From: an uncultured Alphaproteobacteria bacterium
Lineage (GTDB): Bacteria > Pseudomonadota > Alphaproteobacteria > Rs-D84
Assembly: GCA_951801825.1 (NCBI GenBank)
Contig: CATOOF010000001.1
Location: 200,936-264,935, forward strand
Direction: 5' to 3'
Length of the DNA stretch: 64,000 bases
Of the stretch, positions 5,679-25,891 are shown in pieces (position 1 is the stretch's first letter; each line of letters starts with the position of its first letter). A program made the position numbers and the translations under genes. The notes under the pieces were generated by a model, which made no database searches, was not told where the DNA came from, and was given only the letters and a program-made list of their open reading frames with translations.

Positions 5679-6248
5679 ATGAAGTTCAAGCTGCTGTATT
5701 TTGGAGAAATCTTAATAAACCCAAAGAAACGGGCCCAGCACATATCCGATATCCGGATGCAGTTCCACCCACAGTTAAAAAAACTGGTCGAGCATCAGCC
5801 CTGGACCAACATGACAAAGTTCATGCAGCCCGGCGCCACAAAAAGCCCGATAACAACGCGCCATATCGGCGGCATCGACTGGAATCCGATTATCACACCG
5901 AACTTAAAGCTGATTGCGGAACTAGATATCCAAATGCTGCACCCGGAAATTGTTGGTCTGGCGCGCTCTGACATAGACAACCGCATAAAAACATTGCTAG
6001 ACGGCCTGCGTGCGCCGCAAAATGAACATGAAATCGGGGCAAACACGCCGCGCGACATCGGCCCGATTTATACGCTATTGGATGACGACCATCTGGTAAC
6101 AAAACTATCCATTAACACCAGCCATTTGCTGTCAACCAACATGTTCGACCCGAATACGATACGCACGCCAGACACGCTGTTTATGATGATTGACGTAAAC
6201 GTCCGCGTTGTCGAAGGAAACCTGGAAAACCTGCCGTTTATGGTATAA
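5679..6248 (+). CDS. Hypothetical protein (189 aa)
   Basis: ORF with a plausible start. No motif recognised. Confidence 0.35.
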   Translation: MKFKLLYFGEILINPKKRAQHISDIRMQFHPQLKKLVEHQPWTNMTKFMQPGATKSPITTRHIGGIDWNPIITPNLKLIAELDIQMLHPEIVGLARSDIDNRIKTLLDGLRAPQNEHEIGANTPRDIGPIYTLLDDDHLVTKLSINTSHLLSTNMFDPNTIRTPDTLFMMIDVNVRVVEGNLENLPFMV

Positions 6249-6400
6249 ATAACATCTGGCGCCCTGCGGGGCGCTTTTTCTTTCTGCTTCATTTATAACA
6301 AGGAAGTGCCCCGGTCTATTTAATTGAGAAGGCGCAGACCGGGGTATAAAAATTTCACAACGTAACCCGCCGCATGAAAAAAATACCGCCAAAACATATA

Positions 6401-6472
6401 GGGCGGTTGGAAGGTGGAAATCATGCAAAAATTCATGCCCGGTTATTCAATATATTCGCCGGCCTCCAACCC
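6401..6472. repeat. Hairpin-forming intergenic repeat, copy A (GGGCGGTTGGARG ... TTATTCAA-ATAT ... GGCCTCCAACC)
   Basis: The two ends are inverted (ggttggagg / cctccaacc). A second copy with the same ends and the internal TTATTCAA(T/A)ATAT(T)CGC block lies at 63715-63782. Confidence 0.55.
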
Positions 6473-6608
6473 CGTAGGGCGGAGCATGTAACGCCTGCGC
6501 AAGCGATTTTTGTCGCGAGATTTCCACACTCGCATAATAGGACCCCCTATTACGAGTATTATTATATCTTATTTTGATTAATATTCCAAGAATATATTCC
6601 TATGAGGC

Positions 6609-7682
6609 TTATGACAGTGCGGCCGTTATCTGGTCCTGCATCTGGAATGTTCCCAGAACAACCCATGCAATTATCAGCGATACCAGCATGATTCCTATGC
6701 TGTTAAGGGTGCTGGAAATCGCCTCCATCCGGCGTACGGAATCGTCCAGATAGTCATTTGCCACGCGCGACAGATTCTGGTCAAAACCGTTCATATCTGC
6801 ATATATTGCCAAATCGCCTATGATTTCATCATTCGGGAAATCCAGCCCCGTATTAGCCAGCGCCACCCCCAAATTATCACCATTTGCGATATGTCGCAAC
6901 GCGGCGCTTAAAACCCCGCGCAGATATCTGTTTCCATTATCGGCCAACATACGCATCGCATCGGGTACGGTCATTCCGGCGGCCACCATCGCCGACAGCG
7001 ACATCAACCACGACACGGAAACACGTATTTTATAAACACTCCACGGCGGCATGCGGTCCATAAACGCACGCGCACGCCCTGTCCAGTTTGGCAGACTGAC
7101 CCAAATAACCCCCGTCAAAATAACCGCCACCAGAACGACCATAAACCAATATTTATGCGCCGCCGCACTCAGCCATATCAGCGACGCGGCCGCACCGCGC
7201 CATACAACGTCCGTACCGGCCGCATCGGCCAGTGGCGGAACCAGATACAGCCCCACCATAATTATTATCCCAAACGTCAGCGCCAACAAAAACATCGGAT
7301 ATGCCATTGCGGATGCCATTGCACGGTTTATACGGCGCGTACCTTCAACCACGCGGCCTATATTTTCCAGCGCCACCGCCAGATTTGAAATATTTCCCGA
7401 CGTCAGCAACAGTGTTTCTTCCGGCGGAACCCAGCCGCGTGTGGCCTCTGAAAAACTCATACCGCGTTCCAGATTTTTTTGCCATTGACGCATTACAATT
7501 GCAAACGGTTCGCCCGGTTTTCGCCCACCGCGCGATTCAATCATCTCTATCCGCCCCAGCGCATTCATCAACGTAAACTCGTTACGCAACAGCGACGCTA
7601 ATTTACGACATGTCGCCATACGCTTTGACGTGTTCAGACGAAATACAATTTTTGCATACAGTTTTTCCAGCCGTTCCATCAA
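6609..7682 (-). CDS. Type IV pilus / T2SS platform protein, GspF/PilC/TadB superfamily (BfpE/TcpE/PilR-like)
   Basis: 357 aa. Two cytoplasmic GspF-like domains separated by three predicted TM helices. A 4-nt ATGA overlap joins it to the upstream ATPase gene. Confidence 0.75.
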   Translation of the reverse strand: MMERLEKLYAKIVFRLNTSKRMATCRKLASLLRNEFTLMNALGRIEMIESRGGRKPGEPFAIVMRQWQKNLERGMSFSEATRGWVPPEETLLLTSGNISNLAVALENIGRVVEGTRRINRAMASAMAYPMFLLALTFGIIIMVGLYLVPPLADAAGTDVVWRGAAASLIWLSAAAHKYWFMVVLVAVILTGVIWVSLPNWTGRARAFMDRMPPWSVYKIRVSVSWLMSLSAMVAAGMTVPDAMRMLADNGNRYLRGVLSAALRHIANGDNLGVALANTGLDFPNDEIIGDLAIYADMNGFDQNLSRVANDYLDDSVRRMEAISSTLNSIGIMLVSLIIAWVVLGTFQMQDQITAALS

Positions 7683-9307
7683 TATACCCCCGGCCGGTCC
7701 AGCAGCCCAACCCAGCGTTCCAGTTCATCAACACCGATTATACCCTGCAGCATTAATGACACGGCGGCCTCTTTCAGTGTACGCCCGTCCATATTTTCCA
7801 GCCAATATCGTACGGCACCGTCTGTATCGCCCGACAGTGCCAGGCGCAAAAATTCGCTGTTTGTGATTATGATTTCCCCGGCCTTGATACGCCCCAGCGT
7901 TCCGGTCCGGCCGCATTTTTCACATCCCGCCCCGCGGACAAACACCTGGCGCAGGCCCAATTCCCCGAACGCATCCATAACGCGTCGATATGCGGGATGT
8001 TCTGGATGATCGGCCAGCGGCTCGCGACAATCCGGACACAGTTTTTTAAACAACCGCATCGATATCAGACCGCGCATCATTGTTTCTTCTTTCAGCTTGA
8101 ACCCTTCGACCCCCATATCCAGCAATCGCGTCAGCGCCGCCATTGCAGAGTTCGCATGCAGCGTCGTCCAAACATTGTGACCCGACAACGCGCCCTTTAC
8201 CGTTAACTGTGCCGCCGCCAGTGTTCGTATTTCCCCAACCATCAGCGTATCAGGGTCACTGCGCAACGCCGCCGCCAATGCCTCTGTAAACTTTTCCTCG
8301 CGCTGTTCTTCGTTCATGGCGTTGACCACAGGCATCTGATGTGCGCCAAAAATCTTTTGTTCGGCCGGGTCTTCAACCGTAATCAGGTTGATTTCATATC
8401 GCCGCTCTTTCAGCATCAGCGACATATTCCGCACCAGCGTTGTTGACTTACCCGAACTGGTTGGACCGGCAACAACCACCAATCCCGTCGGGAACGAACG
8501 CAACTGCATCAACAGTTTTTGCTCATACTCGCCAAATTCCTGGCCGGATTTTATCCCCTCTGACGGATTGTCGTACAGCAGACGCATAACGACATACCGA
8601 CTGCCGAATGCAATGGGATTAAACTGCATACGTATCGCCAGCACGCCCGCCGGCAGATATAAATCCTTGGTCCCACGCAGGGGCGTGCGCCCGTCTTTCT
8701 GGGCGGACTGATATTCGTTCTGGGCATAGTTGGCATTGGATATGTCGGCCGATGCAAACGCCGCGCGAACAAATGATTCGCCCCATCCGGAATTATATTC
8801 CAGTACCGGCTGCATACTGCCGTCTATGCGGAAATAAATAGTGGTCTGGTCTGCAACCTCTATATGAATGTCGGAAACTTTTTGTGCGGCGGCACGTGCA
8901 ACGATATCGACAAAATCCTTTTGCATCTGGTTGTCGTAATCGGCGCGTCCGCGGCCGTCGCCGGCGCGGCCCTCATACGTCTTGTATATTGTCGACAACA
9001 GTCCTAAATCGGAATAAAAAGGCGTGTCAGCCTTTCGCCCGCGTCGTGCCAGCAAATCAATAAACGCCAAAACGCGCCCGTCGTATCTGTGCGTGCGCGA
9101 TATAATCAGCTCTCCGCCTGAAAAATAGGCAATTAAACTGCGCGTGTCCTTGGACAGCTCAAATTCGCCCCCGGCGGCCGTCAGCAAACGATTACCATTT
9201 GCAAAAAGATAGTCGACGATGTCTTTATTAGTCGCATTCTCCAGCCCCGCCGGCACAGACGGCGTGGTTGAAAAAGGATTTATTATGTTTTTATCTGTCG
9301 TCGCCAT
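7679..9307 (-). CDS. GspE/PilB-family secretion/pilus assembly ATPase (BfpD/TcpT/PilQ-like)
   Basis: Walker A GPTSSGKSTTL, Asp and His boxes (VGEIRTLAAAQ, TTLHANSA) and a C-terminal tetracysteine CPDC...CEKC motif typical of GspE/PilB. 542 aa. Confidence 0.85.
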   Translation of the reverse strand: MATTDKNIINPFSTTPSVPAGLENATNKDIVDYLFANGNRLLTAAGGEFELSKDTRSLIAYFSGGELIISRTHRYDGRVLAFIDLLARRGRKADTPFYSDLGLLSTIYKTYEGRAGDGRGRADYDNQMQKDFVDIVARAAAQKVSDIHIEVADQTTIYFRIDGSMQPVLEYNSGWGESFVRAAFASADISNANYAQNEYQSAQKDGRTPLRGTKDLYLPAGVLAIRMQFNPIAFGSRYVVMRLLYDNPSEGIKSGQEFGEYEQKLLMQLRSFPTGLVVVAGPTSSGKSTTLVRNMSLMLKERRYEINLITVEDPAEQKIFGAHQMPVVNAMNEEQREEKFTEALAAALRSDPDTLMVGEIRTLAAAQLTVKGALSGHNVWTTLHANSAMAALTRLLDMGVEGFKLKEETMMRGLISMRLFKKLCPDCREPLADHPEHPAYRRVMDAFGELGLRQVFVRGAGCEKCGRTGTLGRIKAGEIIITNSEFLRLALSGDTDGAVRYWLENMDGRTLKEAAVSLMLQGIIGVDELERWVGLLDRPGVY

Positions 9308-9327
9308 TTCTACCGCCCGGTTTATGC

Positions 9328-9987
9328 TCAGCGATTGCCGCCAATGTTTAATGTCTGGCTTTTGCCGTCTTTGACAAACACAACGCCATCATCCAATGAA
9401 ATAGATTTCACAGAAAACCCGTCCAGGTCCGCCCCGACACGAATACGTTTTGTCTGGCCGGTGTTAAGCGATTCCACCGTCGCCTGCAGCTGGGAACCGG
9501 CGCCTATTACGTTTATCAGACGAAAATTGTCCGCTATGGCGTCATCGCCATCATCCTCGGATGCGCGCGCCGCAGAAGATGTTGCGGCCCGTGGGGCGGC
9601 GGCCTCCTCCTCTAATGATTTCTTTTCGCGTGCCAATCTTGCGGCCTCTGCCTCCAGCTTGGCTTTTTCTGTTTCCAGCTCCTGTTGCTGGGCCTCGGCC
9701 CGGCCCGACAGGGTATCTATTTCCATATGCAGTTTTATCTTTTCCGCCGCCAACCGGTCCAGTTCCAAATCCAGCTGGGCGCGTTCTTTTTCCAACTGCA
9801 TCAAAACCTTTTCCTGTTCCAAATCCGTAATCTGCTGAAACAGGCTGCCCTCAACCTTGTAATCGGCAACCGCCTGGGCGCCGCGTAAATCCATTTCATC
9901 GTCGGCCGCGACATCCTCTGCACGCACGCCCCCGCATACCAATACGGCAAACATCGCCGCCACATACCAGATTTTCTTATTTTGCAT
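9328..9987 (-). CDS. Secreted periplasmic coiled-coil protein, probable pilus assembly component (BfpU/TcpS/PilP position)
   Basis: Signal peptide MQNKKIWYVAAMFAVLVCGGVRA. A long Glu/Leu/Ala-rich coiled coil. C-terminal beta-rich domain. Position in the operon matches the periplasmic component. Confidence 0.5.
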   Translation of the reverse strand: MQNKKIWYVAAMFAVLVCGGVRAEDVAADDEMDLRGAQAVADYKVEGSLFQQITDLEQEKVLMQLEKERAQLDLELDRLAAEKIKLHMEIDTLSGRAEAQQQELETEKAKLEAEAARLAREKKSLEEEAAAPRAATSSAARASEDDGDDAIADNFRLINVIGAGSQLQATVESLNTGQTKRIRVGADLDGFSVKSISLDDGVVFVKDGKSQTLNIGGNR

Positions 9988-11314
9988 ATATTATCACCTC
10001 ATAGTTCCAGATGCGTCGCGTTGCATCCCATGCACATCGCGTCATATACACGCCGCCAAAATCAGCGAATATCTCCATAAACTGCATCGGCGTCAGCTTG
10101 GATGACGCGGCAATTTCTACAATATCGACAGAAACAGTTTCAACGCCGTTTGTTATCGCATCCGCAACAACACCTATTTCGGCATCGTCGTCAATAGACT
10201 GAAACAGACTGTACACATCGCGTACAATTGTGGCGGCATCACGTTCGTCGCGCGACGCGACAGTGTCTAATTCCGGCAACCGCACGCGGACATTCAACGA
10301 ATTCTCGGCCTGTTCGCGCACAAACGCCCCGGGCATCAAATCACCTGCAATATCATAAAAATCGGTAAGTGTTCCAAACCCGCGTCGAAAATCCGCACTG
10401 GCGTATTGTTCGCCGCATTCTGTCGATGTCTGATTCCATCCGGCCACCGGCTGCATTAAAAACCCAATCGCACGATAGCATGTTTCCGCACGTGCCATTG
10501 GATCTGGCAGATAATCATACGGCATGCGCAATGGTTCTATGGGCGCGGCCTTTTCTATTTCAAATGCCGCATCCAGCTCTTTATTTTTTTCTTCTATTCT
10601 GCGCTTGTACTCGGCGGCCAGTTCCGGATTTATCGACGAAACCTGGGGCCGCGGAGTCATCATCTGAGCAATCGGCCCGCGAAACATATAAACCAGCCCC
10701 AACACAAACAGCGCGATTATCGCCGCCGAGGCCAGCCCCATTTTTATCCGGCTGATATGACGCAGTACCGCCGGCGCACGGCCGGTTATCACATCAGACA
10801 GTGCCCGCTCTACCGCGCGCGGCATAGACCATGCGCTGGGGGCGAACAACGCAGACCAGTCTGGTATCTGGGCCAGACGCAGATATTCGGCACGCGCCGC
10901 CGCCTCTGAATCGAATAAAACATCGTTTAATATTATTCCGTTTCGCACCGCGACCAGGTAATACATGCGACCTGTCTGAAACACCCCCAAAAATGACGAG
11001 TACTCGGTCATGGTGTCCATGATTTCAGCCGCGGCGCTGTGCATTCCGCGGCGATGGCCCATCTGGCGCGACCCCAACCCGACCATGGCCCGATAATCCA
11101 CATACAAACTTAACTTTCCATCAATGGAACGCGCCAAACTGCGCGCATAATTGCGTGCAATAAAACCACTGGCGATTGGCTGCCAAAACAACCCTGTGGC
11201 GTATTTTTTCCTATCAACAGTTATTACTTGATTTATCAAACTCTCTCCCGGATATCCTTGAATGCAATTATAACATAAAATTACGGCGCATGGCAAACAC
11301 AGAATAAAAAACAC
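9977..11314 (-). CDS. Bitopic inner-membrane protein with a cytoplasmic N-domain, probable assembly ATPase partner (BfpC/TcpR/PilO-like)
   Basis: 445 aa with a single central TM helix (MGLASAAIIALFVLGLVYMF). An 11-nt overlap joins it to the downstream gene. The synteny bitopic-periplasmic-ATPase-platform matches type IVb pilus operons. Confidence 0.5.
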   Translation of the reverse strand: MFFILCLPCAVILCYNCIQGYPGESLINQVITVDRKKYATGLFWQPIASGFIARNYARSLARSIDGKLSLYVDYRAMVGLGSRQMGHRRGMHSAAAEIMDTMTEYSSFLGVFQTGRMYYLVAVRNGIILNDVLFDSEAAARAEYLRLAQIPDWSALFAPSAWSMPRAVERALSDVITGRAPAVLRHISRIKMGLASAAIIALFVLGLVYMFRGPIAQMMTPRPQVSSINPELAAEYKRRIEEKNKELDAAFEIEKAAPIEPLRMPYDYLPDPMARAETCYRAIGFLMQPVAGWNQTSTECGEQYASADFRRGFGTLTDFYDIAGDLMPGAFVREQAENSLNVRVRLPELDTVASRDERDAATIVRDVYSLFQSIDDDAEIGVVADAITNGVETVSVDIVEIAASSKLTPMQFMEIFADFGGVYMTRCAWDATRRIWNYEVIIYAK

Positions 11315-11353
11315 CCGCCGTTTTTTCAGGCGGGCGATTTTTTTGTCGGCCGA

Positions 11354-11785
11354 TTACCGGCATTCGCCGTATGCGCCGGTTGCCCCGCATGTTGTGGTAA
11401 CAACATCCACCGGATATGCAATCGTTGCGGCGCCGCCGTTTTTGGCGGTGCGAACACTGCGCGGATGCGGACAGTCATAAACATTTGCCACCAGAACAAA
11501 CGACCGTTCCGGCCCGAAAATTACCCACTCGTTCGGGCGTGTGCGCGAACTGGTTATCCAATATGCATTACCGGGGCGCGCCTGGTCTGCGATACGGTTT
11601 TCCAGATAACGCCGTGCATCATCGGCATCATAAACAGACACCTCTGATTCTAATTTGTACAAGAACGTGCAACCTATCGGTTCCGCATCCAGCTGGGTTA
11701 AAAATTCACTGCCGTTTTCATTTTTTATCATACCCCCGCATGCACACAGCGCCGCCAATGCAAACACAGACAAAAACTTTTTCAT
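11354..11785 (-). CDS. Small lipoprotein (143 aa from MKKF), first gene of the pilus-like cluster
   Basis: Signal peptide plus lipobox (MKKFLSVFALAALCAC). Starts 13 nt downstream of the lpxC stop. Possible pilotin-like role, which is inference only. Confidence 0.45.
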   Translation of the reverse strand: MKKFLSVFALAALCACGGMIKNENGSEFLTQLDAEPIGCTFLYKLESEVSVYDADDARRYLENRIADQARPGNAYWITSSRTRPNEWVIFGPERSFVLVANVYDCPHPRSVRTAKNGGAATIAYPVDVVTTTCGATGAYGECR

Positions 11786-14679: not shown

Positions 14680-14756
<77 letters not shown>

Positions 14757-14898
14757 AGATTTTCCGCAGAATTCTGCGGATTTTTTATTACTCTCCCCAC
14801 CATCAAATTTTCCCGTTTGCTATGTATTTGCTATGGATGGCATTTGCGACCATTAACGATTTCCGTTGAATATTAAGGATAATAGTATAGGCTAAATC

Positions 14899-15645
14899 AT
14901 GTCTTCAAAGGAGATTTGTATGAATTATACAGAATGGGTTGATATTAAGCCACTGAAAAAATGCACGTTGCAACAGGCATGTGAATTTGCCGCCTTTAAT
15001 TGGGAACCGGTGGACGACTTTACCGACAAGACACTGAAAAGACCATCCGACCGAACAAGCGCAAATGAACGCAACGACACAATTTGGCAAAACAAAATGA
15101 AAACAGCCGAAGACAAGATAACATATTTCCTTAGAGCTAATAAACTGATTGCCTCCGGCAAGGTCAAAACCAAACGGATTGAAAAAATTGACCTGTCAAC
15201 TGACTGTGTTATTAACATTGAAAACAATGCAATAACAGACGACGCACACACATACACGGACATAGAACTTGATTTCTATGAACTGCAAAGCATACTAAAA
15301 CACCCACTGTCACGAATGCACTTTACATTGTCGCTGGAAAACGACTGTATTTTCTTAACCATTGATGATAACGCTGTAAAAATACTCGTCAAACGCCTGC
15401 AGGCCACAGCCAAAAACACCAGCATCATCAGAAATATTATGAACAACCCGAACAAACTGATTACACGCGACGAATTTGCAAACATTGACAAGTACGATAG
15501 AATTGACCAAATACTTGACAGCTGCTTACCAAGTGACATTTATCATCTGTTTTTTGATTGCACATCAAATTCGGCACTTTTTAACCCAAACGCATCCGAT
15601 ATAGATTTACAAAAACACGGCATAAAAACACTGACAGTCGTATAA
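14899..15645 (+). CDS. Hypothetical protein (island cargo, 248 aa)
   Basis: AT-rich ORF followed by a rho-independent terminator at about 15664-15713. Confidence 0.4.
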   Translation: MSSKEICMNYTEWVDIKPLKKCTLQQACEFAAFNWEPVDDFTDKTLKRPSDRTSANERNDTIWQNKMKTAEDKITYFLRANKLIASGKVKTKRIEKIDLSTDCVINIENNAITDDAHTYTDIELDFYELQSILKHPLSRMHFTLSLENDCIFLTIDDNAVKILVKRLQATAKNTSIIRNIMNNPNKLITRDEFANIDKYDRIDQILDSCLPSDIYHLFFDCTSNSALFNPNASDIDLQKHGIKTLTVV

Positions 15646-15799
15646 AAGCGTCATCATTTCCATAAAAAAACGCACCCAAATTCATAACAAAGGGTGCTTT
15701 TTTTATGCAAAGAAAAAGACACATACACCTTTCGTCTTTTCCTCAGTATTTTCAATCAGCATAAGGTATCATAACATTATAAAACCAAAAGGTTATACT

Positions 15800-16009
15800 A
15801 TGAATGAAATTAAACTCCAACTACTTGACCAAAAGATGGCGGCGACCTATCTGGGAACAACCGTCGCCAGTATGAACACATTGCGCGCCCAGAACAAGTT
15901 GAACATCCCGTTTGTTCGCTTTGGACGTCGCATTAAATACAAACGCGAAGACCTTGACGCATGGATTGCACAAAATCGCGTTGTACCAACAACAGACACC
16001 AACTTCTAA
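15800..16009 (+). CDS. AlpA/excisionase-family helix-turn-helix DNA-binding protein
   Basis: 69 aa. The pattern YLG...S....L......P.V.FG.R..Y...DLD.WI is typical of the AlpA/Xis phage regulatory family. Confidence 0.6.
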   Translation: MNEIKLQLLDQKMAATYLGTTVASMNTLRAQNKLNIPFVRFGRRIKYKREDLDAWIAQNRVVPTTDTNF

Positions 16010-16132
16010 CCTTTCGTTTATGACGCTGAACTGTGCTTTACATGGCTATTTACCAGCGCATAGACCAAACACAAAACCACAACTGCCATAAATACATGCG
16101 CAGTTAAAGTAACCATTAGGGAACAGATAATC

Positions 16133-16951
16133 ATGAAGGATAGAAAGGAGATAATTGAATGGATAAATAACCAAATCAACACAGAAACGTTATTCTTGTC
16201 GGTTCATTTTGATACGCCACCAACAACCAAAGAAGAAATTTGCGCCCGTTGCCGACCGATATTCAAACACCTGTTCAGAAGTCTTGTCGGTCGTCATTGG
16301 CTTAAAGCATACAACCGTTATTTCACTGTCATAGGCTTTCAGGAATACGGTAAATACGGAAACATGCACGCACATTTCTTGCTTGTATGCCGGACAAAGT
16401 TTAACGCCACAACGGTATTAAAACGCTTAATAACCCTGTCCGACATTATAAAAATGGATGTATGGCAATCCGAAACCGACAAAGCCACACAAAACAAACG
16501 ATATTCAAATGACATTGTTATAAAACAGACATATTCCAGCGATGTCATCAACTATACAACCAAAGAGATACGCATCTTTAATCAACGCATCAGCGACACC
16601 CTGATTCTTGATGTAGATTTGTTTAACAAGACAACCATAGGAGAAAACGACATGTCAAATTCTCATCCGAACACCAGCGGCCTGACCCCGTTCAACAAGA
16701 TGGACGCTGACGAACGCCGTAAAATACAGAGCGCGGGTGGCATCGCCCGTTCAGAGAAAGCCCGACAGTTAAAAAGTATGACTGAAATAATCAACGGCCT
16801 GCGCATAGCATCAGATACCGACCCAATAGAATCCGCCGTTTCCAATCTGTATTTCAGTTTGATTGACCCGACAGTATCCGTCAATGAACGACTGCGTATA
16901 CTTACCACCCTTTACAAGATAATCGGGACAGAAAAAACAAAACCGGAATGA
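16133..16951 (+). CDS. Rolling-circle replication initiator, HUH endonuclease superfamily (putative)
   Basis: Motif 2 is HUHUUU (NMHAHFLLV). Motif 3 is YxxK (VINYTTKEI). A motif-1-like TLFLSVHF lies upstream. Confidence 0.55.
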   Translation: MKDRKEIIEWINNQINTETLFLSVHFDTPPTTKEEICARCRPIFKHLFRSLVGRHWLKAYNRYFTVIGFQEYGKYGNMHAHFLLVCRTKFNATTVLKRLITLSDIIKMDVWQSETDKATQNKRYSNDIVIKQTYSSDVINYTTKEIRIFNQRISDTLILDVDLFNKTTIGENDMSNSHPNTSGLTPFNKMDADERRKIQSAGGIARSEKARQLKSMTEIINGLRIASDTDPIESAVSNLYFSLIDPTVSVNERLRILTTLYKIIGTEKTKPE

Positions 16952-17097
16952 CCTACTGCACAGGCGAACGACAGAGCATAACAACATCCGATTTACAGGG
17001 CAATGACAGGGCATATCAGCCCTGTTTTTATACTTTTACGCTCGCCAACAAAAACATCTTTTCACTGCACAATCACTGCTGACTGGCACACCACACC

Positions 17098-17469
17098 TTA
17101 TTTAATCACATCATCCTTTTTTGTTTTGTTGTCACATATAAAGCAATCACTGACTCGCATTTGGCACAAATCCCACTGCAAATTCATTTCGTCATATTTC
17201 TTCTTAACTGTCGCACTTGGATTTTGCATGGCTATCAAGAAAAGGTCACTTCTTTCCTTATAAAAATCTATGGCAGATTGATTTGACACAAAACCGTACT
17301 TACTACACTTAATATCTTTTTTATATTCTTTTAAACACTCGCAAAATTCTACGTTTTCCTTTTTTGTGCGAACAGGCATACAATTATCATACAAAAACAA
17401 TCCAACACACCCGACAACAGCAATCCCAAAAATTACCAACAATACTTTCAATACCTTTTTGACATTCAT
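17098..17469 (-). CDS. Small Cys-rich membrane-anchored or secreted protein (123 aa)
   Basis: N-terminal hydrophobic segment and 8 Cys residues. AT-rich island cargo. Confidence 0.4.
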   Translation of the reverse strand: MNVKKVLKVLLVIFGIAVVGCVGLFLYDNCMPVRTKKENVEFCECLKEYKKDIKCSKYGFVSNQSAIDFYKERSDLFLIAMQNPSATVKKKYDEMNLQWDLCQMRVSDCFICDNKTKKDDVIK

Positions 17470-17490
17470 TTTGTTCTCCCTTGTTTCAAA

Positions 17491-17937
17491 TTAAAAACAC
17501 TTATCAAATTGTGAATTCGTTATATACGCGTCATATTGTGATGAATGTTCTTCATCATAGTAGATAGGCGAAAACATACATTCTCGTTTTACACATTCCG
17601 ACGCTCTGTGCGCCCATCCCCAACAATCCGAATGGCCATCATATACACAGCGGTCATAAAGACGATTCCCGTAACCGGTCGCAAACCAACCAATCCCATC
17701 CAAATAATCAATATAGTCTTCGCACTTTATGCGCGCCTTTTCCCACTTCTCTTTCTTTTCCCTTTCAACCCGTGCGGCTTGGCGTTGTTGTTCCTTATAT
17801 TCCTCCTGAATAGACTTTACTCGCGTTATACACGCATAATTTAACACATGGCATTCATATTTTTCTTCGCCGACTGTGTACACTTGTGAACACCCGCCAA
17901 CAAGCATCATCGCAACCAAAATAACCATTTTTCGCAT
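17491..17937 (-). CDS. Cys-rich lipoprotein (148 aa from MRKM)
   Basis: Lipobox MRKMVILVAMMLVGGCS. 10 Cys in the mature part. Coiled-coil-like segment rich in E/K/R. Confidence 0.4.
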   Translation of the reverse strand: MRKMVILVAMMLVGGCSQVYTVGEEKYECHVLNYACITRVKSIQEEYKEQQRQAARVEREKKEKWEKARIKCEDYIDYLDGIGWFATGYGNRLYDRCVYDGHSDCWGWAHRASECVKRECMFSPIYYDEEHSSQYDAYITNSQFDKCF

Positions 17938-18241
17938 AATAACACACCACCTTTTGTTTACGCAAAAGATGGTGCGGGGAATTAAAGAAATCACTATACA
18001 GATGACCCCGATAGCTTTCGGATATAATCCTGTTTTATGGCTACCGGTTCCCCGCTTTCCCAGCGGGGATATGAAATTTATGGTGCCATATCCCGGCACA
18101 CCCTGTATAGCGCGGTTCTTTACGCCACGGCATCCTCTGCGGATACAGTACTCAAAATACCCAAAAACGAGAAAAAAGTCAAATTATTAAAAACATCACG
18201 CTCTGATTTCTCATCATTATAACACTTCAGTTAATTAACAA

Positions 18242-19267
18242 TTGAAACAAATAAAATATGATATAAAATCAAGAAAAAGGATACCAATTATGAAAACAAC
18301 CAATGAAGCCGAAAATATGGCCAAAGCTTTATCCGTCACCGACATGTCTCTAGAAGAAGCAATGGTTAAACTTGGTAAAAAAACAGAACCCCCAAAAACC
18401 ATACCAACAGATTTTATTCAAGACGGCTGTTCGGAAGTGTCATTGTTTAAAAATCACCCTATTCGTAAAATATTCCACAAAAACGAATGGTTTTATTCAA
18501 TAGTGGACATTATAAGAGTTATCGTTGGGACAGACAGACCTAGAAAATACTGGGGAGACCTAAAAGATAAACTATTGAACACAGAAGGTTTTTTTGACAT
18601 TTCCGACAAAATCAACAAACTCAAAATGGTTTCTTCTGATGGAAAAAAATACCCAACTGAAGCCGCTGATGCCGAAACCATCTTCCGTATAATACAATCA
18701 ATTCCAAGCCCAAATGCCGAACCATTTAAACGGTGGTTTGCAAGGGTTGCATATGAACGAATACAAGAAATTCAGAATCCTGAAGTCGGTGCCAGAAGGA
18801 TAATGATGCTTTATAAAGCAAAAGGGTATTCAGACGAATGGATTGCCAATCGTATAAAGACTATTGCCGCGCGTAAAGAATTGACCGACGAATGGCAAAG
18901 ACGAGGCATAACAAGTGCAGGCGAATTCGCAATCTTAACAAACATTATTAATAAAGAAACTTTTGATAAGAATGTACAAGACCATAAAACTCTCAAAGGT
19001 TTGAGTAAAACAGATGATTTACGCGACCACATGACACCTATTGAACTTGCTTTGACAATGCTTGCAGAAACAACAACTAAAGAATTCGCGAAAAGTATGA
19101 ATGCCCAAGGAATGAAATCAAATGCCGACGCCGCCAAAAAAGGAGGCGAAGTAGGAAAAGCGGCTCGTATCAGTATAGAACGAAAACTAGGTAAATCAGT
19201 AGTATCCGAAACAAATTATTTAACTCCAAGACAAAAGCAAATGCGGATTGAAAATAAAAAGTCATAA
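18242..19267 (+). CDS. DinD-like / Bro-N domain protein (DNA-damage-inducible protein D family), paralog 1
   Basis: Shares long conserved blocks with the ORF at 21910-22734, for example WFYSIVDIIRVIVGTDRPRKYW, IQSIPSPNAEPFKRWFA and ARKELTDEW. Followed by a terminator at 19270-19298. Confidence 0.55.
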   Translation: MKQIKYDIKSRKRIPIMKTTNEAENMAKALSVTDMSLEEAMVKLGKKTEPPKTIPTDFIQDGCSEVSLFKNHPIRKIFHKNEWFYSIVDIIRVIVGTDRPRKYWGDLKDKLLNTEGFFDISDKINKLKMVSSDGKKYPTEAADAETIFRIIQSIPSPNAEPFKRWFARVAYERIQEIQNPEVGARRIMMLYKAKGYSDEWIANRIKTIAARKELTDEWQRRGITSAGEFAILTNIINKETFDKNVQDHKTLKGLSKTDDLRDHMTPIELALTMLAETTTKEFAKSMNAQGMKSNADAAKKGGEVGKAARISIERKLGKSVVSETNYLTPRQKQMRIENKKS

Positions 19268-19461
19268 ATATAAAACCGGTCATACGACCGGTTTTTATCA
19301 TTTTTCTTTTCTGACGCCTTTAAAAGGTCTTCCATCAGATTTAACATCCATAAATTGCCCTGTCGCACCATTTCGTTTAACATAGCAACCATTTGTCGGA
19401 TTAAAACATTGAGACCGTTCTCTAACAGCCCCTATTCTACGGTTGTCTCCATATGGATTAT

Positions 19462-19716
19462 TTACAGCCATCCCAAACCTCCTACTGTATTACAACAAGT
19501 TCCCTTCATACATTCACATCGATTTCCTGCTCGTACCAAAGCAAGTATTTTTATGGTTGATGTAAAAGGGTCTGGACTTTTATGATTTGAATTACCATAC
19601 GAACTGGTATTCACATGACACTGATGACATAATACCATCGCATTATCCAAACCATTACCACCATCCACTCTTTTGTGATGAACTTCTAAACCATACGTTC
19701 TTGCACATCTTGACAT
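19462..19716 (-). CDS. HNH endonuclease (small, 84 aa), possibly disrupted
   Basis: HNH core EVHHKRVDGGNGLDNAMVLCHQCH. A 57-aa ORF at 19301-19471 overlaps its 3' end in another frame. Confidence 0.55.
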   Translation of the reverse strand: MSRCARTYGLEVHHKRVDGGNGLDNAMVLCHQCHVNTSSYGNSNHKSPDPFTSTIKILALVRAGNRCECMKGTCCNTVGGLGWL

Positions 19717-20094
19717 GTTAATTCCTTTTTGTTGTCAAGGCGGCAATCATACCCAAGACAAAGTAATTGCCATATCTTCGGGACTTTGTTATAATGGGCT
19801 TGTTCTGGGGGCCCAGTTATAGGTATCCCATATGTAAGGATTGTGATAACATAAATCGCAATCCTTGCGTAAATTACAACATATAGTCATAATTTACATC
19901 CTATAACCACAACATATTGATTATCATTTCGATTCGCAACAGGAATAAACAAAATAAAGTTTATTTTTGTCTTTACTTTTAAAAATCGCAGAAAACTGCA
20001 CATTAGCGCCATAAACGAATCATTAAAATAATTTACTTAAATTAATTTGGTACATCATAATTGATATTAACTTATTCATATTTATAAATTTGAA

Positions 20095-21282
20095 TCAAGA
20101 TGACACTTTCCCCAACTCTAGCATCCGGTCAGTGGCTTTTTCCATAGCCGCACGAACGGGGTCGGCCGACAATCTGGCATAGACAAGAGTTGCGCTGGTT
20201 GATTTATGCCCCAGTGATTTGCCGATTATGTTTGTATTGGTACCGGTTATGGCCTCATAACTACCCATAGTACGTCGCAGGTCGTGCAGACGCAAGTTCT
20301 CTATTCCTGCCCTTGCCAGCAAATCCTGCCACGGTCTTTTCGGGTCTTCCAAATGGCCGCTTTTGCTCTTATTACTCGGTAAAACCCAGTCTGATTTCGC
20401 GTGCGGTTTGATTTTTTCAAACAATTCCCTTAATTGACTGGTTATCGGTACCTGCATAGGTTCACTGTTTTTGGTATCCGGCAGGTACATAAAACCGTTA
20501 TTCAAATCAATCTGCGACCAGCGCAAGGCCAGAATATTGCTACGACGCTGACCGGAAAAGAGTGAAATTATAACATAATTCTTAAAGACTTCGTTATTCT
20601 CCGCCCACAGCGCATTAAAAAATCGGCGAAATTCGTCGGATTGCAAGAACCTGTCACGGCTTTTTTCCGGGAATTTACGAATACCAGCGGCCGGGTTATT
20701 ATGACCCTTTACGTACCCATACTTCGCCGCAATTACGTACATATGCTTAATCAGGGACAATACACGGTTCGCCGTATACGGACTGTGCGTCTGTTTGGTC
20801 TGATTATGCAGTTTTTCCAGTTCGGATGTTTTGATACTAAGCAAGTACCGGTTATGAAAGTCCCCCAAACGATGTGTAAAGATACTGTCATCATTGGCGA
20901 CCGAACGGGGCTTTTTATGTACAAGCGAATATTCCGGCTTATAAACCGTTTCATAAAATTGTTTCAGCGTTATATCACGTAAGTTTTCACGACGTTTTTC
21001 CCCCGGATGCGTACCATTTTGTGATGCGTTTTCCGACTTTGTATGCGCCGCCGCACGTGCCGCCACCACCTTAAACTGTGGCCAGCGCCCTATTTTCGTT
21101 CGTACAGGCTTTTTCTCAAAGAACATATAATGATAAAAGGTCTTTGTCCCACCATACGTCACAATCAGCATCAAGCCGTCCTTTGACCCGGAATCGTAAT
21201 ATATGGCCTGCCCGTCCTCTTTGGCCGGAATCGGCAACGCCGCAATGCCCTTTTCTGTAAAATTGATGTGTTGTGCTTTCAT
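20095..21282 (-). CDS. int: Tyrosine-type site-specific integrase
   Basis: 395 aa. C-terminal catalytic region with the HDLRRT...GH...LVYARL pattern (R-H-R-Y). Lies inside the tRNA-bounded island. Confidence 0.85.
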   Translation of the reverse strand: MKAQHINFTEKGIAALPIPAKEDGQAIYYDSGSKDGLMLIVTYGGTKTFYHYMFFEKKPVRTKIGRWPQFKVVAARAAAHTKSENASQNGTHPGEKRRENLRDITLKQFYETVYKPEYSLVHKKPRSVANDDSIFTHRLGDFHNRYLLSIKTSELEKLHNQTKQTHSPYTANRVLSLIKHMYVIAAKYGYVKGHNNPAAGIRKFPEKSRDRFLQSDEFRRFFNALWAENNEVFKNYVIISLFSGQRRSNILALRWSQIDLNNGFMYLPDTKNSEPMQVPITSQLRELFEKIKPHAKSDWVLPSNKSKSGHLEDPKRPWQDLLARAGIENLRLHDLRRTMGSYEAITGTNTNIIGKSLGHKSTSATLVYARLSADPVRAAMEKATDRMLELGKVSS

Positions 21283-21283
21283 C

Positions 21284-21910
21284 TCAATCCCGTTCCCATT
21301 TGGCTACGTCATCCCAAATTCCAACTAAATCCATAAATTCCTTAAATAAAACACTCAGTTTATACGGATATATATCAGGGTTAAATGTTTCAAAAAATCC
21401 GGTTCCCAACAATGACAACAAAACAGCTGAACCTTTTGTTTTACTAACAGCTTTCTTTACAGCAAAAACATCTGCCGGCGCCAACTTTATAATTCCAAAA
21501 AGTTCACGATGTTGCTTTGATATAGCAATACTCGTCATTGGGTCTTTGTACGCTTTAACAATTTCCGCCAAAAATTGAATTTGCTCATAAGACAATTCAG
21601 AAAGTATTGTATTAAAATGATGAAATCGGGACGAAGACAACTGCTCTTTATTATTCATCCCAAGTATCAGCCTTGCCAAAAGACGAATATTATTCTTTCC
21701 GACCCCTTCATTAATATCATTTAATAATCTATAGACAATGGATAAAATATCATCTTGATTAACACGCGAAAAATCCCCATCACGCACTTCTTGCAAGATA
21801 ATCTCTTGCAGTTCTTTTTGTCTTCTTTGTAAAAAATGTTTGGCCATCTCTGTTGGCACGCCAATCAAAGAAGCCGCATCAGATATACAAGCAACCAATA
21901 AACCAGACAT
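21284..21910 (-). CDS. Hypothetical protein (208 aa) immediately upstream of int in the same operon
   Basis: Its stop abuts the int start. Overlaps the upstream DinD-like gene by 1 nt. Confidence 0.4.
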   Translation of the reverse strand: MSGLLVACISDAASLIGVPTEMAKHFLQRRQKELQEIILQEVRDGDFSRVNQDDILSIVYRLLNDINEGVGKNNIRLLARLILGMNNKEQLSSSRFHHFNTILSELSYEQIQFLAEIVKAYKDPMTSIAISKQHRELFGIIKLAPADVFAVKKAVSKTKGSAVLLSLLGTGFFETFNPDIYPYKLSVLFKEFMDLVGIWDDVAKWERD

Positions 21911-22734
21911 TACTCTTTATCAACCTTTGTTAGCAACTTTGCATTTTGACCCGTCACAACGGACTTCCCTGTTTCCTGTTCCAATGTCAACCGCGCCTGA
22001 CGTGCCACATTACCGCCACGCGATGCGACCTTCATAGTTTCCTTAAAACCCTGTGGATTTTCCTTTCTGGCGATTTCAGTTGTGGATAATTCCGCCAACA
22101 TATTCAAAACCAATTCAGCATTGCTCATATTGTCGCGTAAAGACTCCTTATACAGTCCCTTCATGCGCTTATAATCACGGGTTTTCATCCCAGACCATGC
22201 GCGCGTTATTTCATCCGTCAATAACGCATATTCCAATCCCTGCTTTACACCGGCCTTGTCCCATTCGTTTGTTAATTCCTTGCGGACTTCAATAGACTTT
22301 AAGCGTTGCGCCACCCATTCCGGCGAATGCCCCATACGTTGATAATAACGCAGGGCGCGTTGTATGGCGATTTCAGGGTCGGAGATTTCATCTATGCGCT
22401 GGCTACCAACACTGGCCAACCATAATTTAAAAGGTTCGGCCTTCTTAGACGGTATTGATTGAATAAGACGCAAAATCTGTTCAGTATCAGCAACATCAGT
22501 ACTATAAAATTTACCATCTGAAGATTTTAATTTCAGTTGTCCGATTTTTTCGGACAACTGACTACCTTCTTGATTTAACTGTTTTTTCAAATCACTCCAA
22601 TATTTACGAGGTCTGTCCGTACCGGTCAATGCCGCAATAACATCAACGACAGAAAAATACCACTTCTCAGCCTCTTCATCCCAAGTGGTTCTGATATTTT
22701 GGTTTTCAAACAGTTTTAAACTTGTATCCGCCAT
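21910..22734 (-). CDS. DinD-like / Bro-N domain protein, paralog 2
   Basis: 274 aa. N-terminal WYFSVVDVIAALTGTDRPRKYW. About 55-60% identical to paralog 1 over the core. Same size as E. coli DinD. Confidence 0.55.
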   Translation of the reverse strand: MADTSLKLFENQNIRTTWDEEAEKWYFSVVDVIAALTGTDRPRKYWSDLKKQLNQEGSQLSEKIGQLKLKSSDGKFYSTDVADTEQILRLIQSIPSKKAEPFKLWLASVGSQRIDEISDPEIAIQRALRYYQRMGHSPEWVAQRLKSIEVRKELTNEWDKAGVKQGLEYALLTDEITRAWSGMKTRDYKRMKGLYKESLRDNMSNAELVLNMLAELSTTEIARKENPQGFKETMKVASRGGNVARQARLTLEQETGKSVVTGQNAKLLTKVDKE

Positions 22735-22998
22735 GGCACGACCCCTTTCTTTATCAAATCCGCAAAAATCCGGGAATATTCCATTTTGGAAAACCCCAGT
22801 TGTAAAGAAATTCTTTACAACTTACCCCGACCCATAACCCGGACACTTTTTGCTATATATTTGCTATACGCGGCGTCTTTTGCTATGGATTTTCGTTTTT
22901 TGCTATTAACTTTTGTTAATTTTATGATATTCTACAATCCGCAGAAAATCAAGGAAAATTTAGAATTATTTATCGTAATTTATCACCTGACCCATTAA

Positions 22999-23035
22999 CT
23001 GAAGGTCTGTGGTTCAAATCCACACTCCGCAACCA
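22999..23035 (+). repeat. attR: a 37-bp copy of the tRNA-fMet 3' end
   Basis: Exact match to 14720-14756. Followed by a cccggcccgtccggg hairpin plus T-run, probably the original tRNA terminator. Confidence 0.8.
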
Positions 23036-25594: not shown

Positions 25595-25891
25595 ATGAAA
25601 CAACAGGTTTTAAAGGCCTTGGCAAACCCGGCGCGCATATTTTATGTGCCGTATTCACTGGCTGTGATGAATTTCGTAATCCAGTTTTTGATATTCGTGA
25701 CGGTATTTACTGTCGTGATTGTTTTTACGCGCGGGAAAGTCGCAATAAATCCGATGTATTTTCTGTTGTCGCTGATCGGCGTTCACATGATTTTGGCCGT
25801 ATTTTCAAAACGGGAACCCCAGTTGGCACAAATAATTTCTGCCAAAATAAAATTATTAAAAGAAAAAATCCCGCGGAGGCTGGTTTCCTAA
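25595..25891 (+). CDS. virB3: Type IV secretion system protein VirB3
   Basis: 98 aa. N-terminal ALANPARIFYVPYSLAV (VirB3/TrbD signature) followed by two TM helices. Directly abuts virB4. Confidence 0.7.
   Translation: MKQQVLKALANPARIFYVPYSLAVMNFVIQFLIFVTVFTVVIVFTRGKVAINPMYFLLSLIGVHMILAVFSKREPQLAQIISAKIKLLKEKIPRRLVS

Follow-up and report, generated by a model that had tools for sequence, protein, structure and literature searches.

The thin pilus of R64 and other IncI plasmids is encoded by the pilL-V cluster, which includes a PilO2 protein of family PF06864, a PilP protein of family TIGR03021 and the gene order pilO-P-Q-R with overlapping starts. In an IncI R64-type plasmid pilN, encoding the secretin, precedes pilO-P-Q-R and pilS, encoding the prepilin, follows; in R64 itself pilN, pilS, pilU (the peptidase) and pilV with its shufflon belong to one operon on a conjugative plasmid. 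PilP normally forms the bridge to the secretin. The BFP, TCP and CFA-III systems share the layout of a bitopic, a periplasmic, an ATPase and a polytopic component (BfpC-U-D-E in BFP), and each is a single operon of 10-14 genes, located on a plasmid or a pathogenicity island; their pilins have leaders of ~13-30 aa and mature lengths of 180-200 aa. PAPI-1 and the Burkholderia Tfp7 have been grouped with the R64-like thin pili (PMC3984277). The Tfp7/R64-like T4bP cluster of Bosea sp. RAC05 plasmid pBSY19_1 is ordered TcpQ-secretin-PilO2-hypothetical protein-ATPase-platform-PilT-like-PilV.

The locus compared here lies in a window of 64,000 nucleotides, by which we mean the whole stretch of DNA analysed, from a metagenome-assembled genome (MAG) of Candidatus Enterousia, order Rs-D84, whose members are gut bacteria without upper glycolysis and respiration. 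Five co-directional ORFs on the minus strand occupy positions 6609-11785, in the order lipoprotein, bitopic protein, periplasmic protein, ATPase and platform, as the initial annotation had described them. The features are the following:

6609..7679, minus strand: platform gene (PilR2/GspF family), 356 aa, polytopic; PF00482 in two stretches, E 4.9e-24
7679..9307, minus strand: pilus assembly ATPase gene (PilQ2/BfpD-like), 542 aa; PF00437, 211.8 bits
9328..9987, minus strand: pilP2-like gene, 219 aa; TIGR03021 pilP_fam, E 4.9e-8
9977..11239, minus strand: pilO2-like gene, 420 aa from TTG 11239; PF06864 PAP_PilO, E 1.8e-12
11267..11296, minus strand: sigma-70-like promoter match, TTGCCA-18-TATAAT with TG upstream, preceding the pilO start at 11239
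11354..11785, minus strand: lineage-specific lipoprotein gene, 143 aa from MKKF; lipobox LCA/C

The four genes from pilO to the platform gene (6609-11239) probably encode the inner-membrane assembly core of a type IVb pilus that Candidatus Enterousia carries on its chromosome and inherits vertically. They are tightly coupled, with an overlap of 11 nt between pilO and pilP, a gap of 20 nt between pilP and the ATPase gene and 1 nt shared between the ATPase stop codon and the platform ATG; both order and overlaps match R64 pilO-P-Q-R. The GC content of the block region (0.49-0.54) is close to that of the neighbouring lpx and gyrB genes (0.48-0.50), so that its earlier description as host-like is correct.

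Concerning the bitopic component, the maximal pilO ORF (9977-11314) extends to GTG 11314 and encodes 445 aa, while the alignment of orthologues and the gene callers point to TTG 11239 as the start. The putative promoter at 11267..11296 falls in the 5' extension of the longest ORF, which is not conserved, and fits 11 of the 12 consensus positions, a match to the consensus and nothing more. The protein scores 47.3 bits against PF06864 (cutoff 26.7), as is found for the bitopic component of PilO2-type IVb pili, and is predicted to consist of a cytoplasmic actin-like N-domain, one transmembrane segment (approximately residues 166-188) and a periplasmic C-domain. A profile of the PilO family matches BfpC (3vhj, E 0.004) and PilO2Bp (4byz/4bz0, E 0.0045). 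The gene that follows encodes a secreted protein with a signal peptide, a coiled coil (approximately residues 50-135) and a C-terminal beta domain, and its placement and overlap with pilO are the same as in the IncI plasmid. The window protein reaches 34.0 bits against TIGR03021, just below the curated cutoff of 34.65, while all 16 of the PilP orthologues tested match this model (best E 1.8e-10), and we therefore regard it as the PilP that is expected after pilO. A PDB profile search with PilP returned only coiled-coil noise.

In the ATPase all motifs are intact: the Walker A (GPTSSGKST), the Asp box, the Walker B, the His box and the tetracysteine pairs CPDC and CEKC. Its closest solved relative is BfpD (8dze, 276.6 bits, E 3.5e-81, residues 35-526), followed by GspE (162 bits), PilF (approximately 150 bits) and PilB (126-132 bits), PilF and PilB together spanning 126-152; by bit score the protein appears to side with the type IVb ATPases rather than with GspE, PilB or TadA. 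The platform protein that follows it (PF00482, 85.1 bits) has three transmembrane segments. Profile searches of the kind proposed in the initial annotation thus placed the four proteins in PF06864, TIGR03021, PF00437 and PF00482 and not in unrelated families, and the idea of a type IVb core with R64-like O-P-Q-R synteny agrees with the matches of PilO to BfpC and PilO2Bp, with the proximity of the ATPase to BfpD and with the presence of the same order in both the IncI plasmid and the Bosea cluster.

The Bosea plasmid gives the best plasmid match to the Enterousia ATPase, and the two loci share the order PilO2, periplasmic protein, ATPase, platform. The Enterousia and Bosea ATPases are 37% identical along 96% of the length, the platform proteins 34%, and the PilO proteins 30% in their N-domain. 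The Bosea cluster is however complete, contiguous and plasmid-borne, with a TcpQ-like protein, a secretin, a PilT-like ATPase and a PilV adhesin, whereas in Enterousia four genes stand together on the chromosome. Similarity to the IncI proteins is lower, with 26-30% identity for PilQ and PilR (26.5% for PilR) and no BLAST-level similarity for PilO and PilP. Enterousia also differs from R64, where the partner genes share the operon, and from BFP, TCP and CFA-III, its genes being dispersed. The usual situation of type IVb systems, with all genes in one operon that is typically found on a plasmid, an ICE or an island, was therefore not found: four contiguous genes belong to the core chromosome and the pilin is encoded apart.

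Could these genes rather form the core of a type II secretion system, with GspE and GspF accompanied by GspL/M-like partners and no pilus? The top NCBIfam models are indeed GspE for the ATPase (221 bits) and GspF for the platform, and one member of the pilin family described below is named "type II secretion system protein" by NCBI. Both scores are nevertheless far from the cutoffs (TIGR02533, 221.5 vs 630; TIGR02120, 66.7 vs 424), BfpD is ahead of GspE by 115 bits, PF06864 and TIGR03021 are partners specific to type IVb systems, and no gene for GspC, GspD or GspG-M was seen in the window, all of which makes a type II core very unlikely. The TadA-family model TIGR03819 gives 40 bits where 373 are required, the platform consists of one two-domain protein of the GspF type and the Enterousia pilin is not Flp-like; nor did we find the combination of a PilB equivalog and a PilM-N-O-P-Q alignment complex that characterizes type IVa pili. 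The equivalog models, far under their cutoffs, are in line with the earlier exclusion of T2SS, type IVa and Tad systems. Since clusters of the R64 pilO-P-Q-R type typically occur on IncI plasmids and ICEs, it could also be supposed that the block belongs to a mobile element that came to lie beside lpxC only recently, as a conjugative thin pilus like that of R64 or as a pil cluster carried by an ICE; moreover, virB3-virB4 are 14 kb distant and there is an integrated element at tRNA-Met. That element (14757-23035) is however separate from the block and variable among strains, no integrase, relaxase or repeats belong to the block itself, its GC is that of the host, and in ~75 of the 80 species it occupies the same chromosomal place between the lpx genes and gyrB, with a divergence that tracks the housekeeping genes; we give such a recent acquisition hardly any credit.

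The order lpxK-lpxC-lipoprotein-pilOPQR-gyrB is in fact present in ~75 of 80 loci from related Enterousia species. The initial annotation had considered the genes to be inserted downstream of lpxC, and had proposed that conservation beside lpxC be checked in related genomes; since the order is the same in ~75 of the 80 species, the block is not an insertion. Across related species the median identity reaches 84% in the ATPase, against 87% in GyrB and 69% in LpxC. The dN/dS values of the block genes (0.03-0.13) are equal to or below that of LpxC, and those of the ATPase (0.03-0.05) are the same as for GyrB, indicating purifying selection. From these comparisons the block appears to be an ancestral, syntenic and vertically inherited chromosomal locus, evolving as slowly as gyrB. 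The same data bear on the possibility that the genes are a non-functional relic of a lost pilus: in its favour are the lack of adjacent partner genes and the ongoing reduction of the genome, but the ORFs are intact (PilO in 80 of 80 loci, the ATPase in 77 of 79), all the ATPase motifs are preserved and selection is as strong as reported above, so that conservation effectively refutes this reading.

Partner genes were searched for in ~84 kb of the source contig, that is the window and 10 kb past each of its ends, corresponding to ~10% of the genome. Pfam scans, which covered the main unassigned ORFs of the window rather than every one, detected no pilin, A24 peptidase, secretin or second T2SSE ATPase in the window, and a scan of all six frames gave no prepilin motif there, in agreement with what had been noticed at the outset. 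The Pfam annotation of the 10 kb past each window end did not contain these four families either, so that a complete pilus locus, which would have spoken against the original interpretation, was not seen within these 10 kb. Altogether, the ~84 kb yielded no secretin, prepilin peptidase, minor pilin or retraction ATPase, and no secretin turned up in the inspected flanks of the 80 species loci. A pilin in the R64 position, 3' of the platform gene, was considered and rejected, as only 360 bp are available there without a plausible ORF; in relatives the same spot is occupied by unrelated variable inserts, and Rfam gave no significant match in the intergenic stretch that follows the platform gene.

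The Enterousia lineage does nonetheless have a type IVb prepilin family, at a separate conserved locus seen in related genomes and not in the source MAG. The gene lies between uvrC and a pseudouridine synthase gene (L088-L091), and in L023 it is carried on the same contig as pilOPQR. The family counts 802 clusters, similar to the 889 of the PilO family. The CofA/TcpA-like prepilin of 154 aa has a leader of 6 aa (MxQESG), a predicted cleavage before Arg+1, a Glu at +5 and a mature length of 148 aa, differing from the long leader and the mature length of ~180-200 aa of the classical type IVb pilins. Both its profile and its structural model match TcpA and CofA, with the full fold of a type IVb major pilin, and it is nearer to these two than to PilS of R64. 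Beside this locus in the related genomes we likewise saw neither a secretin or prepilin peptidase nor a minor pilin or retraction ATPase. The suggestion of a minimal machine without pilin is thus not supported, and the other option put forward in the initial annotation, that partner genes are encoded elsewhere, proved right for the pilin in related genomes. Because a matching pilin gene is found elsewhere on the chromosome in those genomes, we favour a scattered but ordinary pilus system over a new machine devoid of pilin.

The pilin itself being unlinked, the secretin may be unlinked too. It is nevertheless possible to hypothesize that this is a reduced, type IVb-derived machine truly without secretin in a diderm cell. 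Its product would be a short pseudopilus confined to the periplasm, or it would cross the outer membrane by some other conduit, and its role would have shifted to secretion, to DNA uptake or to contact with a partner cell across the envelope. The secretin gene is directly upstream of pilO in the relatives examined (Bosea, IncI), a position occupied in Enterousia by lpxC and an unrelated lipoprotein gene; the absence of a secretin from the ~84 kb and the inspected flanks, the heavily reduced genome, the presence of DprA in the lineage and the unusually small pilin with its short leader point in the same direction. On the other hand only ~10% of the genome was covered, the pilin keeps the full fold of a type IVb major pilin, and PilP, the bridge to the secretin, is retained and conserved; we consider a secretin-less machine unlikely. 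The bolder proposal, that in Rs-D84 pilOPQR and a miniature Arg+1 pilin constitute a novel envelope-spanning or periplasmic device without any secretin, an organelle central to an obligate life as cell-to-cell parasite or epibiont, is also improbable in our opinion; if true, the device would be comparable to the pili of Patescibacteria.

For the scattered type IVb pilus that we prefer, a mode of action can be proposed from the knowledge of the BFP, TCP and R64 systems. On the cytoplasmic side, the hexameric ATPase would dock both on the platform and on the actin-like N-domain of PilO2, the bitopic component, and ATP hydrolysis would make the platform lift processed pilin out of the inner membrane into the growing filament, while PilP would connect the inner-membrane complex towards the exit in the outer membrane. 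The likely substrate is the prepilin of the uvrC-pseudouridine synthase locus; the prepilin peptidase, the outer-membrane channel and probably the minor pilins would be encoded elsewhere or replaced. A filament crossing the outer membrane would most likely serve attachment to partner cells or host surfaces, as suggested by an organism of ~850 genes without most biosynthesis, and possibly DNA uptake. According to the literature, Enterousia genomes are below 1 Mb and the bacteria are probably partner-dependent (PMC12306168). A published survey of Rs-D84 genomes mentions type IV pili only for another lineage, which counts against our reading, as do the partner genes not found in the ~84 kb and the short leader, Arg+1 and small size of the pilin. 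Our literature search found nothing specific on pili in Rs-D84 or Enterousia. Candidatus Enterousia being a widespread uncultured gut lineage, the pilus core and its dedicated CofA/TcpA-like pilin are candidates for the attachment to partner or host. It would also follow that a type IVb system, as a rule a compact operon on a mobile element, can turn into scattered core genes, and that in scans of such genomes an absent neighbour does not mean an absent function.

The lipoprotein gene, which begins 13 nt after lpxC, is a doubtful part of the pilus system. Its family has two conserved Cys besides the lipobox and comprises 562 clusters, none of which has a Pfam domain or has received a functional name in any source, the labels of a few being limited to hypothetical or generic lipoprotein; among 1.84 billion proteins it accounts for only 44 representative clusters. 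The family profile shows no similarity to the Bosea secretin, the TcpQ-like protein or IncI PilM, Pfam scans of distant family members gave no match, and the AF2 model is unusable (pLDDT 49). Three loci (L023, L051 and L084) possess pilOPQR without an adjoining lipoprotein gene, and in three others (L064, L078 and L086) extra genes lie between the lipoprotein gene and pilO; considered as possible secretins, these were rejected, as they encode a beta-barrel outer-membrane protein.

The five co-directional, tightly coupled genes described in the initial annotation are indeed present at 6609-11785, where five ORFs lie on the minus strand, all in the same direction:

11354-11785, minus strand: lipoprotein, 143 aa, with lipobox LCA/C, 13 nt beyond lpxC
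9977-11314, minus strand: bitopic protein (pilO), maximal ORF of 445 aa
9328-9987, minus strand: pilP, secreted coiled-coil protein, 219 aa
7679-9307, minus strand: ATPase, 542 aa
6609-7679, minus strand: platform protein, 356 aa

Gene callers and orthologue alignment place the pilO start at TTG 11239, giving 420 aa. There is an 11-nt overlap of pilO with pilP and a 1-nt overlap of the ATPase gene with the platform gene, while 20 nt separate pilP from the ATPase gene. The ATPase retains intact Walker A, Asp box, Walker B and His box motifs together with CPDC and CEKC; one TM segment is present in the bitopic protein and three in the platform.

The bitopic protein scores 47.3 bits against PF06864 (PAP_PilO), above the curated threshold of 26.7, and its family profile matches two solved N-domain structures, 3vhj of BfpC and 4byz of Burkholderia PilO2, each with E ~0.004; these two actin-like structures are the basis on which PF06864 is defined (PMC3984277). 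The 219-aa protein falls just under the cutoff of TIGR03021, the R64-type PilP family (34.0 against 34.65 bits), and all 16 of its tested orthologues match this model (best E 1.8e-10). The ATPase is a T2SSE protein (Pfam) and the platform belongs to the GspF/PilC family. Among solved relatives of the ATPase, the type IVb BfpD is by far the best (276.6 bits over residues 35-526), against 162 for GspE, ~150 for PilF and 126-132 for PilB. Equivalog models of GspE, PilB and TadA all score far under their cutoffs, in agreement with the earlier claim that the layout is not that of T2SS, type IVa pili or Tad, and a T2SS reading is poorly supported.

In the plasmid collection, the ATPase has its nearest relative on pBSY19_1 of Bosea sp. 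RAC05, where a full type IVb cluster shows the order TcpQ-like, secretin, PilO2, hypothetical protein, ATPase, platform, PilT-like ATPase, hypothetical protein, PilV; identities with the window proteins are 37% for the ATPase, 34% for the platform and 30% for the PilO N-domain. An IncI plasmid carries pilM-pilN(secretin)-pilO-pilP-pilQ-pilR-pilS(prepilin), its genes overlapping as in our block. The family matches and the gene order shared with the Bosea and IncI plasmids thus confirm the initial assignment as a type IVb O-P-Q-R core.

PilO relatives were sought in one genome per GTDB species, yielding 282 stretches, and the best 80 were examined; all 80 come from gut MAGs, mostly labelled Candidatus Enterousia, Alphaproteobacteria or Rickettsiales. 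In about 75 of them the order is DUF374-lpxK-lpxC-lipoprotein-pilO-pilP-ATPase-platform-(variable spacer)-orf189-gyrB, and PilO is intact in every one. Median identities relative to the window proteins are 87% for GyrB, 84% for the ATPase, 77% for the lipoprotein, 72.5% for the platform, 69% for LpxC, 60.5% for PilO and 60% for PilP. Against four closer species, dN/dS of the ATPase is 0.03-0.05, equal to that of GyrB, and none of the other proteins exceeds 0.13. The pilOPQR block is thus an ancestral core locus under strong constraint. Its GC matches that of its neighbours, in line with the host-like GC previously noted. The proposal that it had been inserted downstream of lpxC does not survive: the locus is neither an insertion nor a relic, and mobile-element and relic readings have poor support.

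The 189-aa orf189 (5679-6248, plus strand) is 75-100% identical between species, close to the conservation of GyrB, and has no match in Pfam or NCBIfam; it keeps its divergent pairing with gyrB even at loci where the two genes are inverted together (L011, L019, L077). The platform-orf189 spacer, only 360 bp in the window, is an insertion hot spot in related loci (L008 15153-15662, L034 14821-17097, L044 14939-17155, L060 8571-10811, L076 14710-17244). Inserts differ by species: some encode a small protein whose N-terminus resembles a signal peptide, others two apparent DNA methyltransferases with a third gene after them, possibly forming a restriction-modification set, and others again secreted proteins of 738-844 aa that are rich in cysteine. 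Directly 3' of the platform gene, the intergenic region 6380-6600 (minus strand) has a promoter-like site (6589-6561), a hairpin and then a U-run where the predicted fold ends on its 3' side (~6380-6410), a folding z-score of -2.1 and 85-92% identity limited to the three closest species. Rfam gives no match, and the stretch may represent a small RNA or simply a conserved 3' UTR.

The lipoprotein family is lineage-restricted, without a Pfam domain, and counts only 44 representative clusters among 1.84 billion proteins; its distant members, also lipoproteins, are ~105 aa long and share two conserved Cys. No source gives a functional name, a few records saying hypothetical or generic lipoprotein, and the profile shows no similarity to secretin, TcpQ-like protein or PilM. 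The AF2 model was unusable as structural evidence. A sigma-70-like consensus promoter match lies between this gene and pilO, and in the rearranged genomes (L023, L051, L084) no lipoprotein gene adjoins pilOPQR. We treat the lipoprotein as a conserved neighbour, perhaps associated with lpxC, and not as an established pilus component. In three ruminant-gut species (L064 8901-9896, L078 8706-9701, L086 713-1675) the lipoprotein gene and pilO are separated by a gene for a 320-331-aa protein with a signal-peptide-like N-terminus and C-terminal Phe. This product is not a secretin but probably an outer-membrane beta-barrel.

As reported initially, the 64 kb show neither a pilin nor an A24 peptidase, a secretin or a second T2SSE ATPase in Pfam scans of the main unassigned ORFs, and a six-frame search for G-x4-E plus a hydrophobic stretch found nothing. 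Nor are these families listed in the precomputed Pfam annotation for 10 kb past either end. The main rival explanation, a machine truly without a secretin, fits these negative searches but seems unlikely to us.

The fallback suggestion that partner genes are encoded elsewhere holds for the pilin, found at a separate locus in related genomes. The pilOPQR context differs in three species (L023, L051, L084), and in L023 a 154-aa ORF with the textbook class III signal sequence MIQESG/RSMIEMLGVLAIMGVITVGAIG lies on the same contig, 6 kb downstream of pilOPQR (20005-20481). In other genomes the gene is solitary, between uvrC and a pseudouridine synthase gene (10001-10465 in both L088 and L090). The family comprises 802 clusters, comparable with PilO (889) and the lipoprotein (562), and is highly conserved, with Gly-1, Glu+5 and two Cys invariant; among the matches listed, a few members appear at NCBI under the title 'prepilin-type N-terminal cleavage/methylation domain-containing protein'. 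The family profile aligns with full-length TcpA (8uhf) at E 2e-7, spanning helix and globular domain, and Foldseek with the AF2 model (pLDDT 83.9) agrees, ranking TcpA first. The Enterousia lineage thus encodes a type IVb major pilin, unlinked from the motor genes in the related genomes.

This pilin departs from classical type IVb pilins by its 6-aa leader, 148-aa mature length and Arg at +1. The predicted +1 residue, after the cleavage Gly, is an invariant Arg, while in characterised type IV pilins it is usually Phe or Met, which poses the question of whether the pilin is N-methylated and by which peptidase. In L090, near the pilin locus, the interval from dnaJ to a CDP-alcohol phosphatidyltransferase gene holds a tandem array of three small genes at 7194-7852 (76, 67 and 67 aa); each product has one hydrophobic segment and none has the G-x4-E motif.

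We consider it probable that pilOPQR forms the inner-membrane core that assembles a type IVb pilus, chromosomal but with dispersed genes, by polymerising the uvrC-linked CofA/TcpA-like pilin. The Enterousia system is a new type IVb pilus member, unusual for its dispersed core-genome organisation and miniature pilin. PMC12306168 describes Enterousia (order Rs-D84) as a group with sub-1-Mb genomes that lacks respiration, has an incomplete glycolysis and is probably an obligate symbiont or parasite; type IV pili were reported in that study solely for another lineage. The filament would most likely serve attachment to host surfaces or partner cells; uptake of DNA is another possible role, given that the lineage has DprA.

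Elsewhere in the window, virB3 (98 aa) and virB4 (805 aa, PF03135) stand isolated at 25595-28309 (plus strand), followed by two ORFs (205 and 222 aa) without significant family match; type IV secretion genes too are therefore scattered, like the pilus genes. A functional tie to the pilus, as in IncI plasmids, would be pure speculation. An 8.3-kb element is integrated at tRNA-Met (14714-23035), flanked by 43-nt direct repeats that copy the 3' end of the tRNA (14714-14756 and 22993-23035, 95% identical). It has a GC of 0.37-0.43; its genes include a tyrosine integrase at 20095-21282, a Rep-like ORF and two coding for Bro-N proteins. The element is absent from L002 and L004, strains with an identical ATPase, where the lipocalin and ABC-F genes and virB3-virB4 come immediately after DUF374.
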